Shown: in pieces, positions 1 through 4,841 of the stretch
Numbering within the stretch: the first letter of the stretch is position 1
Layout of the letters: the number at the start of each line of letters is the position of its first letter
IMG/VR virus record: IMGVR_UViG_2802429251_000006
Strand: one strand, 5' to 3'
DNA: 4,841 nt
DNA from: a virus
Lineage: Duplodnaviria; Heunggongvirae; Uroviricota; Caudoviricetes
Notes under the pieces: model-generated
Told to the model about the DNA's origin: nothing
What the model saw: the letters and a program-made list of their open reading frames with translations, nothing else
The model's database searches: none
Translations under genes and position numbers: made by a program

Positions 1-125
1 CCACGGGAATATCTGCGACAGCGGACCAGTAATGGGTTAAGTGATAACAGGTGTCTGGAAATATAGGGGCAAATCCATTGTGTAAATGTTAACAAATGTG
101 CGTTTTATTTGATCTGATTCGCTGT

Positions 126-155
126 TTGAGCGTCCAAAACAACGGTATATATAAT
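126..155 (+). promoter_or_regulatory. Candidate sigma70 promoter for the lipoprotein moron (TTGAGC, 18-bp spacer, TATAAT)
   Basis: Seen in sequence: TTGAGC at 126-131 and a perfect TATAAT at 150-155, about 30 nt upstream of the ATG at 185; GAGGA Shine-Dalgarno at 177-181. Hexamer match only; no transcript data. Confidence 0.35.
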
Positions 156-184
156 CCTTTACTATATGACATATGTGAGGAAAA

Positions 185-613
185 ATGGGTTTTCGTAGCG
201 CATCAATTCTTACGTTGATTATTAGTGGGATTATTATCGGGTGCACTGATGCTGTATCGACAAATTATCATGACCGTACATCATATTACTCCGATAAAGC
301 AATAGAGACACAGTATGTGAGTTCATCTGAACGTACTTCTGATGTTAGTGAGGATATCCGTCTGTATGCCCATCAAATCAAGAGCGCCATCGAAAAACAG
401 TTCGGGGATGCGAGTAAGTATTCAGGAAAAGAGTGTACACTGAGAATGCATATGGCCCCGAATGGCCTTCTACTGGAGGTTAAAAGAGAAAGTGGAGACC
501 TCGATTTATGTCGTGAAGCGATGAATGCGATAAAGAATGCTGATATACCTGCCCCCCCTTCGCCGGAAGTATATAAAGTATTTCAAAATGGGGTGCTGGA
601 TTTTAAACCCTGA
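185..613 (+). CDS. Lipoprotein with TolA domain III-like C-terminal domain (142 aa)
   Basis: N-terminal signal peptide MGFRSASILTLIISGIIIGC with lipobox IIGC. The C-terminal ~85 aa (YAHQIKSAIEKQFGDASKYSGKECTLRMHMAPNGLLLEVK...PAPPSPEVYKVFQNGVLDFKP) aligns nearly motif for motif with my recollection of the E. coli TolA C-terminus (YAGQIKSAIESKFYDASSYAGKTCTLRIKLAPDGMLLDIK...PKPPSQAVYEVFKNAPLDFKP). SD GAGGA 4 nt upstream of the ATG. Confidence 0.8.
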   Translation: MGFRSASILTLIISGIIIGCTDAVSTNYHDRTSYYSDKAIETQYVSSSERTSDVSEDIRLYAHQIKSAIEKQFGDASKYSGKECTLRMHMAPNGLLLEVKRESGDLDLCREAMNAIKNADIPAPPSPEVYKVFQNGVLDFKP

Positions 614-763
614 TATTTATTGTTTTGTAATAAACGGTTTCGGCTTAGGTTTGTTCTGACACAACTACGGCACTGAGCTAAATCTAGCGGATAGTCAGCT
701 CTGAGCCAGTGGCGGACGTAACAACTACTATTGCTGAGATTTTAATGGATTGAGGAGCAAGAA

Positions 764-1159
764 GTGGGATTAAAGAAAATCGTTATGTTGACTTTTTGGG
801 TCAGTTTTGTTGCGGGATGCACACCTTTACACCCTTCAGATTGCCACAAAACTACTGCTACAGGTAGTTGCAGTTCAGGACGCTGGGATGATCAGGATGA
901 ATGGGGGGCGCAAGCGCGGGGAATCAGAGCTGCAATTAATGCCAAACTTGATGAGCCGCATAACTGGAAAGGGAAAAAATGCAGGTTGCATATGGAATTC
1001 TCTCAGGATGGCACGGCGTTAAAAATATCTACCAGTAACGGTGATAAAGCCTATTGCGAAGCGATAAAGTCCGCAGCTCATAAAGCCAAATTTCCGGCCT
1101 TCAACAATCCGGAAGTCTACAGAGATTTTCAGAAATCTGGCTTTGACATGCGAGGTTAG
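764..1159 (+). CDS. Second, diverged lipoprotein with TolA domain III-like C-terminal domain (131 aa, GTG start)
   Basis: GTG start at 764 preceded by GAGGAG (752-757) with a 6-nt spacer. Signal peptide MGLKKIVMLTFWVSFVAGC with lipobox VAGC. The C-terminal region keeps the TolA-III spacing pattern (KKCRLHMEFSQDGTALKI...GDKAYCEAIKSAA...FPAFNNPEVYRDFQ) but is more diverged than the upstream paralog. Confidence 0.7.
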   Translation: MGLKKIVMLTFWVSFVAGCTPLHPSDCHKTTATGSCSSGRWDDQDEWGAQARGIRAAINAKLDEPHNWKGKKCRLHMEFSQDGTALKISTSNGDKAYCEAIKSAAHKAKFPAFNNPEVYRDFQKSGFDMRG

Positions 1160-1284
1160 CTCTTCAATTACTATATCTCATTCATAGCAAACTGACAGAT
1201 TTGATGATGTTCTATATACGAAACCTGTGATGTCAAGTCTGAGCTAATACAAATAAACATAATATCAGAGAAATACATTTTATT

Positions 1285-1306
1285 AGCTCGCTACGGCGAG
1301 CTTTTT
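1285..1306 (+). terminator. Rho-independent terminator (7-bp GC-rich stem, 4-nt loop, T-run)
   Basis: AGCTCGC (1285-1291), loop TACG, GCGAGCT (1296-1302), followed by TTTT (1303-1306). The reverse orientation has no T-tract, so it is unidirectional on +. Confidence 0.6.
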
Positions 1307-1410
1307 ATATTGCATCGTCTCCAGCATATATATCAATTAAGGCTCTGATTGATGTGTCTGGAAGCCTACACATAATAACTATGCCATCCGTTCCGTGCGG
1401 AGGTGAGGCT

Positions 1411-1626
1411 ATGAAATCCATGGACAAAATTTCAACAGGCATTGCCTACGGCACCTCCGCAGGCAGTGCTGGCTACTGGTTTTTACAGCTGCTCGATAAA
1501 GTCACGCCCTCACAGTGGGCAGCAATAGGTGTGCTGGGTAGCCTGGTATTTGGCCTGCTGACGTACCTGACAAACCTTTATTTCAAGATTAAAGAAGACA
1601 AGCGTAAGGCTGCACGGGGAGAGTAA
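1411..1626 (+). CDS. S: Class II pinholin, phage 21 S21-type, with dual-start motif (71-aa antiholin from ATG 1411, 68-aa holin from ATG 1420)
   Basis: Translation [71 protein letters not shown] matches my recollection of S21 closely: Met1-Lys2-Ser3-Met4 dual start, Gly/Ala/Ser-rich SAR-like TMD1, hydrophobic TMD2, basic C-terminal tail. GGAGG at 1399-1403 sits 7 nt before the ATG at 1411. The track ORF starting at 1354 is an in-frame extension with no RBS. Confidence 0.9.
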
Positions 1627-1630
1627 TTCA

Positions 1631-1975
1631 ATGACTCAAAAATATGAACTGATTGTGAAAGGGATCCGCAATTTTGAGAATAAAGTTACGGTAACTTTAG
1701 CGTTACGGGACAAAGAACGCTTTGACGGTGAAATTTTTGACCTGGACATCTCGCTGGACCGTGTTGAAGGTGCCGCGCTGGAGTTTTATGAGGCAGCAGC
1801 CAGAAGGAGCATCAGACAGGTCTTCCTGGATGTTGCTGCCGGGTTATGTGAAGGGGATGAGCTGTCGCCGGAAAAGCGCCCCATAATTTTAGAGGCGCAG
1901 AATGTGTGGATAACCTACAAAGGAAAGCTACCGGGAAGAATTACTGGTTCTCTGAAGACTCCGCCGAAATGGTAA
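1631..1975 (+). CDS. ydfR: DUF1327-family protein (YdfR-like), conserved between holin and endolysin in Qin-type cassettes
   Basis: Translation MTQKYELIVKGIRNFENKVTVTLALRDKERFDGEIFDLDISLDRVEGAALEFYEAAARRS... resembles, as recalled, YdfR of the E. coli K-12 Qin prophage, which also lies between essQ and rrrQ. GGGGAG SD 7-8 nt upstream; starts 4 nt after the holin stop. Family assignment is from memory. Confidence 0.75.
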   Translation: MTQKYELIVKGIRNFENKVTVTLALRDKERFDGEIFDLDISLDRVEGAALEFYEAAARRSIRQVFLDVAAGLCEGDELSPEKRPIILEAQNVWITYKGKLPGRITGSLKTPPKW

Positions 1976-2213
1976 TTTCACCAGCATATTTTTCTTCCAG
2001 TAATACCGCCAGCCACTTGAAAGAATTTTGTTGTTGCTGGGACCATTTGGGGTTGAGTGATTCAAGCTGGAGCGATGCCAGTGTTGGTTGCATTTGTTCC
2101 TTGGGAATTGAGAATGCCAGATATGAAAATGCGACAGTAAGGGCATTTACATCATCCCGAAGCTTGGAAATGCAGTCGAGCAACTCCTGTAGAGAAATGG
2201 TGCTATTGTCCAT
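1941..2213 (-). CDS. Hypothetical small protein (90 aa) encoded antisense in the gap between the DUF1327 gene and the endolysin
   Basis: Minus-strand ORF with ATG at 2213 preceded by GAGAGG and a 7-nt spacer (an ideal SD). Translation MDNSTISLQELLDCISKLRDDVNALTVAFSYLAFSIPKEQMQPTLASLQLE... has a protein-like composition, whereas the same-region + strand ORF (1906-2238) is Cys/Ser-rich and looks like antisense noise. Its 3' end overlaps the last 35 nt of the DUF1327 gene. No homolog recognised. Confidence 0.3.
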   Translation of the reverse strand: MDNSTISLQELLDCISKLRDDVNALTVAFSYLAFSIPKEQMQPTLASLQLESLNPKWSQQQQNSFKWLAVLLEEKYAGEITISAESSENQ

Positions 2214-2318
2214 AAACAATCCTCTCTATTGTATTTAACTATTCCTTGCCTGATTCAACAGGCCGGGACAGATAAACATATCCAGGGTTCAGAAACCGAT
2301 AAATCCTGATAAATATCC

Positions 2319-2861
2319 ATGAACGTAAAAATCAGATACGGCCTGTCGGCTGCCGTTCTGGCACTGATTGCCGTCGGTGCGCCTGCGCCTGATATTCTCG
2401 ACCAGTTTCTGAATGAAAAAGAAGGTAACCACACAACGGCATACCGCGATGGTTCCGGCATCTGGACCATCTGTCGGGGTGCCACGGTGGTGGATGGAAA
2501 ACCCGTTTTTCCCGGTATGAAACTGTCGAAGGAAAAATGCGACCAGGTTAACGCCATTGAACGGGATAAGGCGCTGGCATGGGTGGAGCGCAATATTAAA
2601 GTGCCACTGACCGAACCACAGAAAGCGGGTATAGCGTCATTTTGTCCCTATAACATTGGCCCCGGTAAGTGTTTCCCGTCGACGTTTTATAAGCGGCTGA
2701 ATGCCGATGATCGTAAGGGGGCATGCGAGGCGATTCGCTGGTGGATAAAAGATGGTGGGCGTGATTGCCGCCTGACAAAAGGGCAGAAGAATGGCTGTTA
2801 TGGGCAGGTCGAGCGGCGCGATCAGGAAAGCGCACTGGCGTGCTGGGGGCTGGAGCAATGA
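2319..2861 (+). CDS. R: SAR endolysin (phage 21 R / RrrQ-type lysozyme, T4-lysozyme-like glycoside hydrolase)
   Basis: 180-aa translation begins MNVKIRYGLSAAVLALIAVGAPAPDIL, a weakly hydrophobic Gly/Ala-rich signal-anchor-release domain, then the catalytic triad E35-x8-D44-x5-T50 (EGNHTTAYRDGSGIWT). Overall it resembles the Qin/phage 21 lysozymes as recalled. The stop overlaps the Rz start (ATGA at 2858-2861). Confidence 0.92.
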   Translation: MNVKIRYGLSAAVLALIAVGAPAPDILDQFLNEKEGNHTTAYRDGSGIWTICRGATVVDGKPVFPGMKLSKEKCDQVNAIERDKALAWVERNIKVPLTEPQKAGIASFCPYNIGPGKCFPSTFYKRLNADDRKGACEAIRWWIKDGGRDCRLTKGQKNGCYGQVERRDQESALACWGLEQ

Positions 2862-3394
2862 AAATTAATCCGGATCTTATAGGCGTTGTCGTTATTGCTG
2901 GCCTTTCGGTCGCTCTCGTCAAGAGTTGCTCTCACGCCAGTAATCTTCAGAGCGATAACGACGTTCTGCGAAGTGACAACTCTATGCTGGGGCAGGTAAT
3001 CGCCACCCAGGCATTCAACTTCAATCGATTCAATCAGGTTGCAGAACATGCCAACAGTCTTAACTCCCTGATCGACACCAGCACCGAAAAAACCGTAATC
3101 GAATACCGGGAGATTCTCCGCCGTGAAAAAACCTGTGATCTGCCTGTTCCTGCTGATATCGCTGGTGGGTTGCTCGAATACACGTACCGTTTACGTGCCA
3201 GCGCCATGCACACCGATACCGGCAGACCTAATGAAGCCTATGATCGTACCGCTACCACCAGCTCAATGACCTACTGCCAAGCTGTCTTGTGGATTAAGCC
3301 GCTACTGGCGTTGATAGAAAAAGGAAATAATAATTTTTCGAGTATTCGTGAAATTGATGAGTTGCGTTACAGACCATCTGAGCATGGCCAGTAA
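2858..3394 (+). CDS. Rz: i-spanin Rz (178 aa, type II inner-membrane protein)
   Basis: ATG at 2858 overlaps the endolysin stop. N-terminal TMD LIGVVVIAGLSVALV, then a periplasmic domain of the expected size. A classic Rz1 lipoprotein is embedded in its +1 frame. The track ORF from 2765 is an upstream in-frame extension across the endolysin 3' end. Confidence 0.8.
   Translation: MKINPDLIGVVVIAGLSVALVKSCSHASNLQSDNDVLRSDNSMLGQVIATQAFNFNRFNQVAEHANSLNSLIDTSTEKTVIEYREILRREKTCDLPVPADIAGGLLEYTYRLRASAMHTDTGRPNEAYDRTATTSSMTYCQAVLWIKPLLALIEKGNNNFSSIREIDELRYRPSEHGQ
3123..3269 (+). CDS. Rz1: o-spanin Rz1 (48 aa proline-rich outer-membrane lipoprotein, fully embedded in the +1 frame of Rz; GTG start)
   Basis: Hand translation of the +1 frame: (M/V)KKPVICLFLLISLVGCSNTRTVYVPAPCTPIPADLMKPMIVPLPPAQ*. 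Signal peptide with lipobox LVGC; mature region has 8 Pro in 32 residues and a second Cys. GGGAG at 3108-3112 lies 10 nt upstream of the GTG. The frame opens at 3099 with no in-frame ATG before the hydrophobic core, so GTG 3123 is the likely start. Too short to appear in the supplied ORF track. Confidence 0.75.
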   Translation: MKKPVICLFLLISLVGCSNTRTVYVPAPCTPIPADLMKPMIVPLPPAQ

Positions 3395-3469
3395 GGTTGC
3401 AGGAAATTTAAAATCTGGCGATGAAATTTAATATTAGAAATTCATTGCCTAGTGAGATTAATAATGGGC

Positions 3470-3511
3470 ATCCCTTTGTGACGATAAGCTTTAACACATT
3501 CACAAAGGGAT
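3470..3511. repeat. Perfect 12-bp inverted repeat (ATCCCTTTGTGA / TCACAAAGGGAT) with 18-nt spacer between convergent genes; candidate bidirectional terminator or protein-binding site
   Basis: Arms at 3470-3481 and 3500-3511 are exact reverse complements. The spacer contains the palindrome AAGCTT. Flanking T-tracts are weak, so intrinsic-terminator function is uncertain. Confidence 0.35.
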
Positions 3512-3562
3512 ATTTAATATAGGGTGGTTAATTCCCACTTGCTGTGGTGTTTAGGGGGTAAT

Positions 3563-4255
3563 TCAAATCTTATCTAACTCATTATAGGCTTCGATAATAA
3601 AAATTCTGATTTTAATAAGGCATGATTCAATGAAAGGAATTACTTCATGGTCATTCCCATGGAATCTTATTTTTTTCTCTTCGGTAATGACTATGTTTAA
3701 AGGTACACCATTACCACTTCTTTGTAATTTCCCATTTTCGAAAGTAAAGTCTTCTAATTTTTTGCCATTGATGTGGTTGTTTTTAAAGAGAATTTTTGCT
3801 GAGCTTCCTGCTGTGATTAAACCAAAACCATCTACGCTCACACTTAGGTCTTTAACAGAACTCTCTTCTCTTAAGGGGATTGGTTGTCTGTGCTTTACTT
3901 CATTAGTGAGATTACACATCATTTCCAACCAAGATTCGCCAGTGTGATAATCCTGTATAGAAGTAAAAATTTTATATAATGGAGAAGATGATGGTGGGTT
4001 TATTTTTAGCGTCTTTGAGAAAAATTTATCAATAAACTCTTTTTTTCCGTAAGGGAAATATATTTTGGGGCGCTCATCATTACTGCGTGGAGAAATATAT
4101 TTATCATAGGTATCATTAGCGAGATACTCTAAGGAACTTCGTAAGTTTTCCAAAATAGCTTTGACTTTTACAGGCTTGATATGCTGTGTCTGTCTCATTA
4201 TGTCAAGACTTTCTTCAACTTCTTGCAATAAGTCCAACGAGCCTTCTCTAGACAT
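3563..4255 (-). CDS. Hypothetical 230-aa cytoplasmic protein; AT-rich cargo (moron) gene convergent on the lysis cassette
   Basis: Minus-strand ORF with ATG at 4253-4255 preceded by a strong AAGGAG SD (10-nt spacer). Translation MSREGSLDLLQEVEESLDIMRQTQHIKPVKVKAILENLRSSLEYLANDTYDKY... has no signal peptide or TMD. GC content is clearly lower (roughly mid-30s percent by eye) than in the adjacent lysis genes (about 50 percent). No family recognised. Confidence 0.75.
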   Translation of the reverse strand: MSREGSLDLLQEVEESLDIMRQTQHIKPVKVKAILENLRSSLEYLANDTYDKYISPRSNDERPKIYFPYGKKEFIDKFFSKTLKINPPSSSPLYKIFTSIQDYHTGESWLEMMCNLTNEVKHRQPIPLREESSVKDLSVSVDGFGLITAGSSAKILFKNNHINGKKLEDFTFENGKLQRSGNGVPLNIVITEEKKIRFHGNDHEVIPFIESCLIKIRIFIIEAYNELDKI

Positions 4256-4350
4256 ACAGGTAATTCTCCTTTATGAATTTTCAACATGTTATAACTAATA
4301 ATATATTTATCATATAACTGTATGAATAAATTGTGAGATTAGTAATGCAA
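4256..4350 (-). promoter_or_regulatory. AT-rich upstream region likely holding the cargo gene's own promoter (hexamers not confidently assigned)
   Basis: About 95 nt of greater than 75 percent A+T immediately upstream of the minus-strand ATG, with several TATAAT-like and TTGNNN-like hexamers on the minus strand (e.g. TTGCAT, TATAAC). Position-based inference only. Confidence 0.25.
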
Positions 4351-4610
4351 GTTTCTATCCATAGTGTTCTCTAAGTACCCGCTTCCATCATGTTGTTACG
4401 GACGGTATGGCTAAAACAAAGCACCTGAAGTTAAACGTTCTGAACTTTATGCTCGTTGAGCATATGAATTATCTGTAACCCGATGCGCTGGTTGTGGTTC
4501 ACATTGATGGTCGTAATCAGCAGCGGTGGTGCCTGATGGCATGCAACTTCTTACTTATAAAACTTCGTATGGAATTGTTGCCATAACGAGCCCAGCTTAG
4601 CAGTTTTTAA

Positions 4611-4722
4611 TGGGTCCTCCCGGCAGTGTGTCCTGCCACGGGGCGGGAGCGTCGCGGAAAAAGGCTAGTTTTTGAAATTTCATTCGTCATCACCACTACT
4701 GTAATGTATTGATATTACAGTG
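4611..4722. other. Candidate lambda-like cohesive end site (cosQ-cosN-cosB)
   Basis: TGGGTCCTCCCGGCAGTGTGTCCTGCCACG-GGGCGGGAGCGT-CGCGGAAAAAGG...TTCGTCAT resembles, from memory, lambda cos (ACGGGTCCTTTCCGGTGATCCGACAGGTTACG-GGGCGGCGACCT-CGCGGGTTTTCGC...TTCGTCAT): shared GGGTCCT, ACGGGGCGG, CGCGG and TTCGTCAT blocks at the same spacing. It lies about 175 nt upstream of the next gene start, as in lambda. Not verified by alignment. Confidence 0.45.
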
Positions 4723-4826
4723 GTTTTATTTTTGTGGTGTCGATTTTGATTGTTTTTTGTTCATCACTAACACCGTTTGCCTAAAGTTGTTCGCAAGATG
4801 CATGTTTAAAACATTCTGGAGCGGGT

Positions 4827-4841
4827 ATGGATCGAGAGTTA
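4827..4841 (+). CDS. Probable 5' end of terminase small-subunit gene (truncated by the window; first 5 codons only)
   Basis: ATG at 4827 with GGAG 5 nt upstream (4818-4821), about 175 nt downstream of the putative cosN, mirroring the lambda cos-nu1 layout. Only MDREL is visible, so the call rests on position. Confidence 0.25.

Follow-up and report, generated by a model that had tools for sequence, protein, structure and literature searches.

A probable lambda-type cos site with a variant predicted cohesive end beside a DUF1441 small-terminase gene in a lambdoid prophage of Escherichia coli

Introduction

Is the DNA to the left of a terminase gene in this prophage a cos site of the lambda type and, if it is, does a cohesive end that differs from that of phage λ alter which terminase can package it? 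These questions are posed by the right end of a 4,841-nt stretch of viral DNA (IMG/VR record IMGVR_UViG_2802429251_000006), which is referred to here, at its full length, as the window. A first-pass annotation, made from the letters, had recognized a λ-like cos site with an altered cohesive-end core in front of the start of a terminase gene, and had suggested that the alteration bears on packaging specificity. We find it very probable that bases 4612 to approximately 4826 constitute the cosQ-cosN-cosB cos site of a lambdoid E. coli prophage, and are similarly confident that the terminase of this prophage is of the λ type and its head module of the Gifsy-2/mEp460 type. The variant overhang is an ordinary allele that is already present in public records, and variation of this kind has been published.

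Organization of cosQ and cosN

The features of the window are collected in Table 1. Direct reading gives ACG at 4638-4640, followed by GGGCGGGAGCGT and, at 4653-4657, CGCGG; the GGGTCCT heptamer, the cosN flanks and the inverted repeat discussed below all lie where the first-pass annotation had placed them. The λ cos sequence given in that annotation was checked against the junction in NC_001416 (GGGTCCT-23 nt-/GGGCGGCGACCT/CGCGGG, slashes marking the nicks) and proved to be right.

The left half of cosN, GGGCGG, and both flanks (ACG and CGCGG) are the same in the window and in λ, so that the window possesses the 12-bp interval with conserved left half and flanks by which a λ-type cosN is characterized. 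The 7-bp cosQ, which is expected approximately 20-25 bp upstream of the nick, is separated from the predicted top-strand nick by 22 nt, compared to 23 nt in λ, and is unvarying across every related cos site that was aligned. A composite pattern of cosQ and cosN with 21 specified bases, GGGTCCT N18-26 CGGGGCGG N4-7 CGCGG, has a single occurrence in the window, and none in 200 shuffles. Rotational symmetry extends to 8 of the 16 bp of cosN, versus 10 in λ. By analogy, the nicks are predicted at 4640/4641 in the top strand and at 4652/4653 in the bottom strand. The predicted overhang GGGCGGGAGCGT departs from that of λ at positions 7, 8, 9 and 11, leaving 8 of the 12 bp shared; the six differing bases originally counted are reduced to four, positions 10 and 12 being the same as in λ.

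Table 1. Features of the window (positions are those of the window; bp are counted from the predicted left end)
Feature	Position	Strand	Remarks
First of two tandem small ORFs upstream of the holin gene	185-613	+	TolA-type
Second of two tandem small ORFs upstream of the holin gene	764-1159	+	TolA-type
Rz-like gene	2765-3394
48-aa lipoprotein-like ORF (MKKPVICLFLLISLVGCS...)	3123-3269		Out of frame within the Rz-like gene
230-aa ORF	3563-4255	-	Between Rz and cos
cosQ heptamer GGGTCCT	4612-4618	+	Same 7 bases as in λ, where it is a termination-of-packaging signal
cosN core CG/GGGCGGGAGCGT/CG	4639-4654		12-bp interval plus two flanking bp on each side
Predicted 12-nt 5′ cohesive end GGGCGGGAGCGT	4641-4652	+	12-mer that opens the cdtI and Tritos records
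cosN-proximal block CGCGGAAAAAGGCTAGTTTTTG	4653-4674	+	Resembles λ bp 13-33
TTCGTCAT	4683-4690		bp 43-50
R3-like candidate small-terminase site TCATCACCAC	4687-4696	+	bp 47-56
Inverted repeat	4695-4724		11-nt arms 4695-4705 and 4714-4724, 91% complementarity; 8-bp cores ACTGTAAT (4698-4705) and ATTACAGT (4714-4721)
IHF-site core TATCAATACATTA	4702-4714	-	Perfect WATCAANNNNTTR, bp 62-74; sole perfect match in the window
A/T tract	4724-4733		Spaced from the IHF core as in strong IHF sites
R2-like candidate TCGACACCAC	4734-4743	-	Inverted; 8/10 match to TCATCACCAC
R1-like candidate TCATCACTAA	4761-4770	+	8/10 match to TCATCACCAC
Segment AAAGTTGTTCGCAAGATGCATGTTTAAAAC with an imperfect palindrome	4788-4813		ATGCAT-centred
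Small-terminase gene start	4827-4841	+	ATG at 4827; GGAG at 4818-4821; gene runs past the end of the window

Terminase genes and gene context

Counted from the predicted left end, the ATG of the small-terminase gene is at bp 187, and that of λ at bp 191. From base 78 to its end at 4841, the window matches prophage regions of several complete E. coli genomes with 100% identity. In the ACN001 copy (L001) the whole gene (CDS 13750-14244) can be read and encodes small terminase WP_000373426.1, which matches Pfam DUF1441 (2.7e-41) and PHROG 141, “terminase small subunit” (phrog_141; 1.4e-73). The order of genes at this locus is: Q antiterminator and tRNAs, two genes with TolA C-terminal domains, holin essD, ydfR, lysozyme and Rz; a 230-aa minus-strand ORF, cos, the DUF1441 protein and a 700-aa large terminase; and finally a W-like gene, a portal gene and a ClpP-type protease. 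The large terminase, read in ACN001 from a gene that lies outside the window, possesses GpA_ATPase (PF05876, 8.6e-72) and GpA_nuclease (PF20454, 1.1e-85) domains and is 25% identical to λ GpA (E = 5e-19). The original call of a λ-like cos adjoining a terminase gene is thereby sustained, the gene being a DUF1441 small terminase with a GpA-type large terminase downstream of it.

A λ-type terminase combines a GpA-family large subunit with a small subunit that has a winged helix. The relationship of the small terminase to λ Nu1 is distant. BLASTP revealed no Nu1 similarity, Pfam assigned the protein to DUF1441 instead of Phage_Nu1, and there was no meaningful match among PDB sequences. At the profile level, reciprocal PHROG cross-matches between the small terminase and Nu1 were obtained over nearly the full length (6.8e-10 and 5.6e-8), which indicates that the two are remote homologues. 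The DUF1441 proteins are, as judged from these profiles, a putative sister family of Nu1 with a Nu1-like role.

Several other genes in the left part of the window deserve description. The 230-aa ORF matches phrog_13652 (function unknown; 3.1e-159), gave no match with Pfam or PADLOC, and forms an island of approximately 34% GC, the lysis genes having 45-54%. Its appearance is that of a moron in a hotspot between the lysis genes and cos, where other phages have different genes. The tandem small ORFs upstream of the holin gene are named TolA and TolA C-terminal-domain in RefSeq, have lipoprotein-like N-termini and were without a match in PADLOC; it is possible that they are envelope or superinfection-exclusion morons. 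The 48-aa lipoprotein-like ORF within the Rz-like gene represents the usual Rz1 arrangement, and is unannotated in the RefSeq copies examined.

We think it possible, if somewhat unlikely, that the cos site is an intact-looking relic, the source prophage being defective and the site uncut by its own terminase and used, at most, in trans by a co-resident phage with the same cosB. In the ACN001 copy, identical over 78-4841, the prohead protease gene is truncated and fused to a tail gene, and the capsid and most of the tail genes are missing; furthermore, the neighbouring genes (hokD, rem, ydfU, essD and rrrQ) correspond to the genes of the cryptic Qin-type prophage region. Against this, CFSAN061769 carries a cos that is 100% identical over 4605-4841 alongside a head and tail module that appears to be complete, its head being Gifsy-2-like and its tail λ-like. 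Moreover, a relic of this kind bears on the use of the site in one host, not on its identity as a cos site. Side by side, the two loci (ACN001 L001, 18008-19255; CFSAN061769 L145, 18481-20508) differ in that the ClpP-protease/capsid fusion is truncated in ACN001 and joined to the tail NlpC/P60 gene. The ACN001 prophage has thus suffered a head-tail deletion, and in some hosts the site may not be in use.

The cosB region

Alignment of related cos sites reveals that they are nearly identical from cosQ to approximately bp 33, beyond which they fall into at least four unrelated cosB types, the divergence of which tracks that of the small terminases. The cosN-proximal block CGCGGAAAAAGGCTAGTTTTTG is nearly unvarying across cosB groups whose small terminases are 42-100% identical. 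The sequences diverge sharply to the right of this block, while the cosB regions are unrelated and the small terminases unrelated or only 42% identical; so abrupt a change resembles a mosaic joint produced by recombination within cos.

In λ, an IHF site (I1) is situated between R3 and R2. The perfect IHF consensus of the window likewise lies between R-like candidates, and is the predicted equivalent of I1, at which IHF would bind. The A/T tract is spaced as in strong IHF sites, such as H′ of λ attP. With one mismatch or none, an IHF match is present in 89 of the 111 unique cos sequences, those of the λ type included, compared to 6.7% of shuffles. Most sites of the DUF1441 type have this match at bp 61-64; in those of the λ type it is mainly found at bp 74 or 79.

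The R3-like candidate falls at the location of R3 in both λ (bp 50-65) and N15 (bp 48-60), and the +/-/+ arrangement of the three R-like decamers around the IHF core reproduces the λ order R3, I1, inverted R2, R1. Decamers of the TCATCACCAC type with two mismatches or fewer occur 10 times in the window against 4.3 expected, for a motif that was chosen post hoc. The statistics being weak, we regard these decamers as candidate R sites. In cosB group B, the R2/R1 pair takes the form of a perfect 8-bp inverted repeat (ATGTCGAA/TTCGACAT), and the pair alters in parallel in other cosB groups; that the group B pair differs suggests co-variation with the small terminase.

The first-pass annotation had also cited TTCGTCAT as an element of the cosB region. 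It was rejected as a landmark homologous to that of λ, in which the position is bp 67-74; here it is 24 bp nearer to cosN. A further element, the segment with an imperfect palindrome just upstream of the small-terminase Shine-Dalgarno sequence, is conserved in cosB groups A-C despite the divergence of cosB.

The same annotation had placed the cosB protein-binding sites at the inverted repeat. This was partly right, in that the repeat encloses the IHF consensus, which is conserved in position; the repeat itself is kept only in cosB group A, and is missing from groups B-D, which retain the IHF core. It was rejected as a conserved structured element, for it is missing from three of the four cosB groups and no compensatory changes were found in it among 18 variants. 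The conserved content of the repeat is the IHF core.

The repeat and the T-run that follows it could instead be an intrinsic terminator or RNA hairpin of the late transcript, rather than a protein-binding element of cosB, but we consider this improbable. It was flagged in a scan as weakly terminator-like, the RNA hairpin has a predicted energy of -14.6 kcal/mol (z = -3.5), and the single-sided changes in relatives are mostly compatible with G-U pairing. The hairpin, however, contains only 3 G-C pairs, and compensatory double changes are lacking in the 18 variants mentioned above. In cosB groups B-D, which are devoid of the repeat, the TTGAT core and the T-tract are nevertheless retained where they stand in the window; the tract is in keeping with the A/T element of strong IHF sites. 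Late transcripts are, in any case, Q-antiterminated.

Ends of public phage records

The GenBank record of phage cdtI (AB285204) starts with GGGCGGGAGCGTCGCGGAAAAAGG and ends with ...GGGTCCTTCCGGTGGGGTGGCCTGCCACG. The record of Tritos (OV696610), a plaque-forming prophage of LF82, opens with GGGCGGGAGCGT as that of cdtI does, and likewise ends ...CCACG. Both records may have been opened by homology to λ rather than by experiment; the Tritos paper nowhere mentions cos or termini.

Ayreon, whose small terminase is 99.4% identical to that of the window, was assembled from virion DNA. Its announcement merely predicts cos packaging, from the phylogeny of the large terminase. At 44400-44570 of its record (MF807953.1, L137) the sequence runs ...CCACGGGG, approximately 150 nt of filler, and then CCGTGGAAAAAGG; the filler contains part of the small-terminase gene in duplicate, and the CDS annotated as “putative late gene regulator” (44298-44582) covers this assembly artefact. 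Since the record is broken there, the assembly failed exactly across cosN, as is expected for linear molecules that end at that point. In the mEp460_4F5 record (LR595868.1, L002 1-30), the first base lies 5 nt left of the predicted nick and the 12-bp interval is shorter by 3 nt (TCG/CGT). No relative shares this gap, which probably arose in assembly at the physical ends; in mEp460 itself the 12-bp interval is complete. The same cosN is found in the plaque-forming phages mEp460, phi458, Ayreon and Tritos, with the qualification that mEp460 has G at position 12 and that the record of Ayreon is disrupted.

The interval between the flanks is GGGCGGGAGCGT in the window, phi458, PhiR47_1 and HannyBb, GGGCGGGAGCGG in mEp460 and GGGCGGCGCGCT in mEp213; it is shorter in 1720a-02 and Stx2_14040 (GGGCGGGCGG, 10 bp) and in VT1-Sakai (GGGCGGGCGGG, 11 bp). 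In the cos sites of these Stx phages (1720a-02, VT1-Sakai and Stx2; L009-L011, approximately 630-650) cosQ and the CG/GGGC.../CGCGG framework are kept, and cosQ lies 24 nt from the nick. Their intervals imply either that the cohesive ends are shorter or that the length of the G-run is in error.

For the cyanophage Cr-LKS3, the small terminase of which is 40% identical to that of the window, a 9-nt 5′ end, GGGCTCGCG, is reported as determined (PMC9303873). In its record GGGCTCGCG is followed by CGCGGAAG, so that CGCGGAA comes directly after the overhang. Because this end abuts the same flanks, the conserved flanks appear to mark the nicks in this terminase lineage too.

It is therefore pertinent to ask whether the cos site is real but nicked at positions that are not 12 nt apart, or elsewhere, giving a shorter or shifted overhang. 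Length does vary among relatives of the DUF1441 type, from 9 nt in Cr-LKS3 to 10-11 bp between the flanks in the Stx phages and VT1-Sakai, and the mEp460_4F5 record is without 3 nt of the interval. On the other side, the CG/GGGC and /CGCGG flanks are fixed in all of these, and only the variable right half changes in length; with constant flanks, the nicks would be at the flanks, that is, 12 nt apart in the window. In addition, exactly GGGCGGGAGCGT opens the records of cdtI and Tritos, and the gap in mEp460_4F5 sits at an assembly end and is not shared by mEp460. A displaced nick is consequently, in our estimation, very unlikely, and the 12-nt end remains the preferred prediction. Headful (pac) packaging with a coincidental resemblance to cos, one of the outcomes that the first-pass annotation had named as fatal to its reading, gained no support and may be dismissed as next to impossible, given a large terminase of the GpA family, a 21-base composite match absent from the shuffles, and public records opened at the site.

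Prevalence and alleles

When the segment from cos to the small terminase was compared with phage records by blastn, identities of 94-97% were obtained with vB_EcoS-569R4, phi458, mEp460 and mEp460_4F5. The match with Ayreon (97%) is confined to the DNA right of cosN, owing to the misassembly of cosN in its record. PhiR47_1 and its relatives matched at approximately 77%, the Stx phages and VT1-Sakai more weakly.

A pattern scan of IMG/VR for cos returned at least 129 matches, and the counts that follow refer to the matches listed. The 12-mer of λ, GGGCGGCGACCT, accounted for 62 of 129; GGGCGGGAGCGT was second commonest with 20/129, followed by GGGCGGCGCGCT (9/129), GGGCGGGAGCGG (5/129) and GGGCGGGCGG (5/129), while other minor variants made up 28/129. 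By tblastn of the downstream DNA of these listed matches, the λ allele was accompanied by Nu1 in 56 of 62 cases, and GGGCGGGAGCGT by a DUF1441 small terminase, 42-100% identical to that of the window, in 19 of 20.

Of 5426 complete E. coli genomes, 2113 contain a match to the 237-bp cos segment, and in 1471 of the 5426 the coverage is at least 80%. In a set with one representative genome per species, E. coli, E. ruysiae and two MAGs carried the exact allele; the two MAG occurrences are probably binning carry-over. A literature search for GGGCGGGAGCGT, its complement and related strings yielded only unrelated papers on G-quadruplexes and primers. The novelty that had been implied for this cohesive end thus disappears, the allele being common and already in public records.

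Packaging and its specificity

Following λ, the DUF1441 small terminase would bind the R-like sites of cosB, and IHF would bend the DNA at the I1-like site. Together, the small terminase and the bend could position the GpA-type large terminase on cosN, where it would introduce the predicted top- and bottom-strand nicks and generate 12-nt 5′ ends of sequence GGGCGGGAGCGT. CosQ would serve termination at the downstream cos.

[quoted passage not shown] 2015, PMC4669245). Since right-half changes are neutral for nicking and specificity resides in cosB and the small terminase, the altered overhang is not expected to set specificity, contrary to what had been proposed. Packaging specificity of this site should, by this argument, lie in cosB and its small terminase. 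λ terminase should fail to initiate here, because the cosB is foreign to it (as judged from work on λ, 21 and N15), and might still terminate here, because cosQ and the left half of cosN are conserved. A hybrid chromosome with one λ end and one GGGCGGGAGCGT end would anneal with four mismatches, and would probably cyclise poorly.

There is a slim chance that the right-half alleles are under selection rather than in neutral drift, whether as a compatibility or isolation barrier separating lambdoid lineages resident in one host or through DUF1441/GpA terminases that, in contrast to that of λ, read the right half. Two observations bear on this. In the IMG/VR matches listed, CGACCT occurs almost only with small terminases of the Nu1 type, and GAGCGT and other variants with those of the DUF1441 type; and GAGCGT is retained across cos sites with unrelated cosB and small terminases that are only 42% identical. 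A more mundane explanation could be that a cosQ-cosN cassette has spread by recombination, the mosaic joint lying near bp 33.

The practical value of the site is in annotation. Knowledge of the position of cos and of the likely 12-nt end permits the genomes of a very common type of E. coli prophage to be oriented and opened correctly, and exposes misassemblies in public records (Ayreon and mEp460_4F5); it has little significance beyond this.

Comparison with other phages

The site resembles λ cos in its cosQ heptamer, GGGCGG, nick flanks and 12-bp interval, in the predicted IHF site between R-like candidates, and in the GpA-family large terminase that it is associated with. It differs in that the small terminase is DUF1441/PHROG 141, as opposed to Phage_Nu1/PHROG 57, the two being related at the profile level only; in the IHF core, which is at bp 62 rather than about 74-79; and in the R sequences, which are unrelated.

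Phages cdtI, Tritos, phi458, PhiR47_1 and HannyBb share exactly the cosQ, cosN and GGGCGGGAGCGT of the window. The cosB type of the window is found in mEp460, phi458 and Ayreon, the small terminases of which are at least 98.8% identical to that of the window; mEp460 departs from it by a G at overhang position 12. By contrast, the cosB of cdtI, Tritos and HannyBb is different and their small terminases are only 42% identical to that of the window, and PhiR47_1 has a third cosB type.

[quoted passage not shown] Cr-LKS3 has a related small terminase and a 5′ overhang that starts with GGGC and is followed by CGCGGAA (PMC9303873), but the overhang is 9 nt long, and the host and the remainder of the genome are different. 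Parallels for the overhang itself are N15 and Gifsy-1, which have λ-like 12-nt ends altered only within bp 7-12, and a conserved cosQ (PMC4669245). The altered positions are 9 and 12 in N15, 8, 9 and 11 in Gifsy-1, and 7, 8, 9 and 11 in the window (PMC4669245 for the two phages). N15 differs from the window in its simple cosB, which comprises R3 only.
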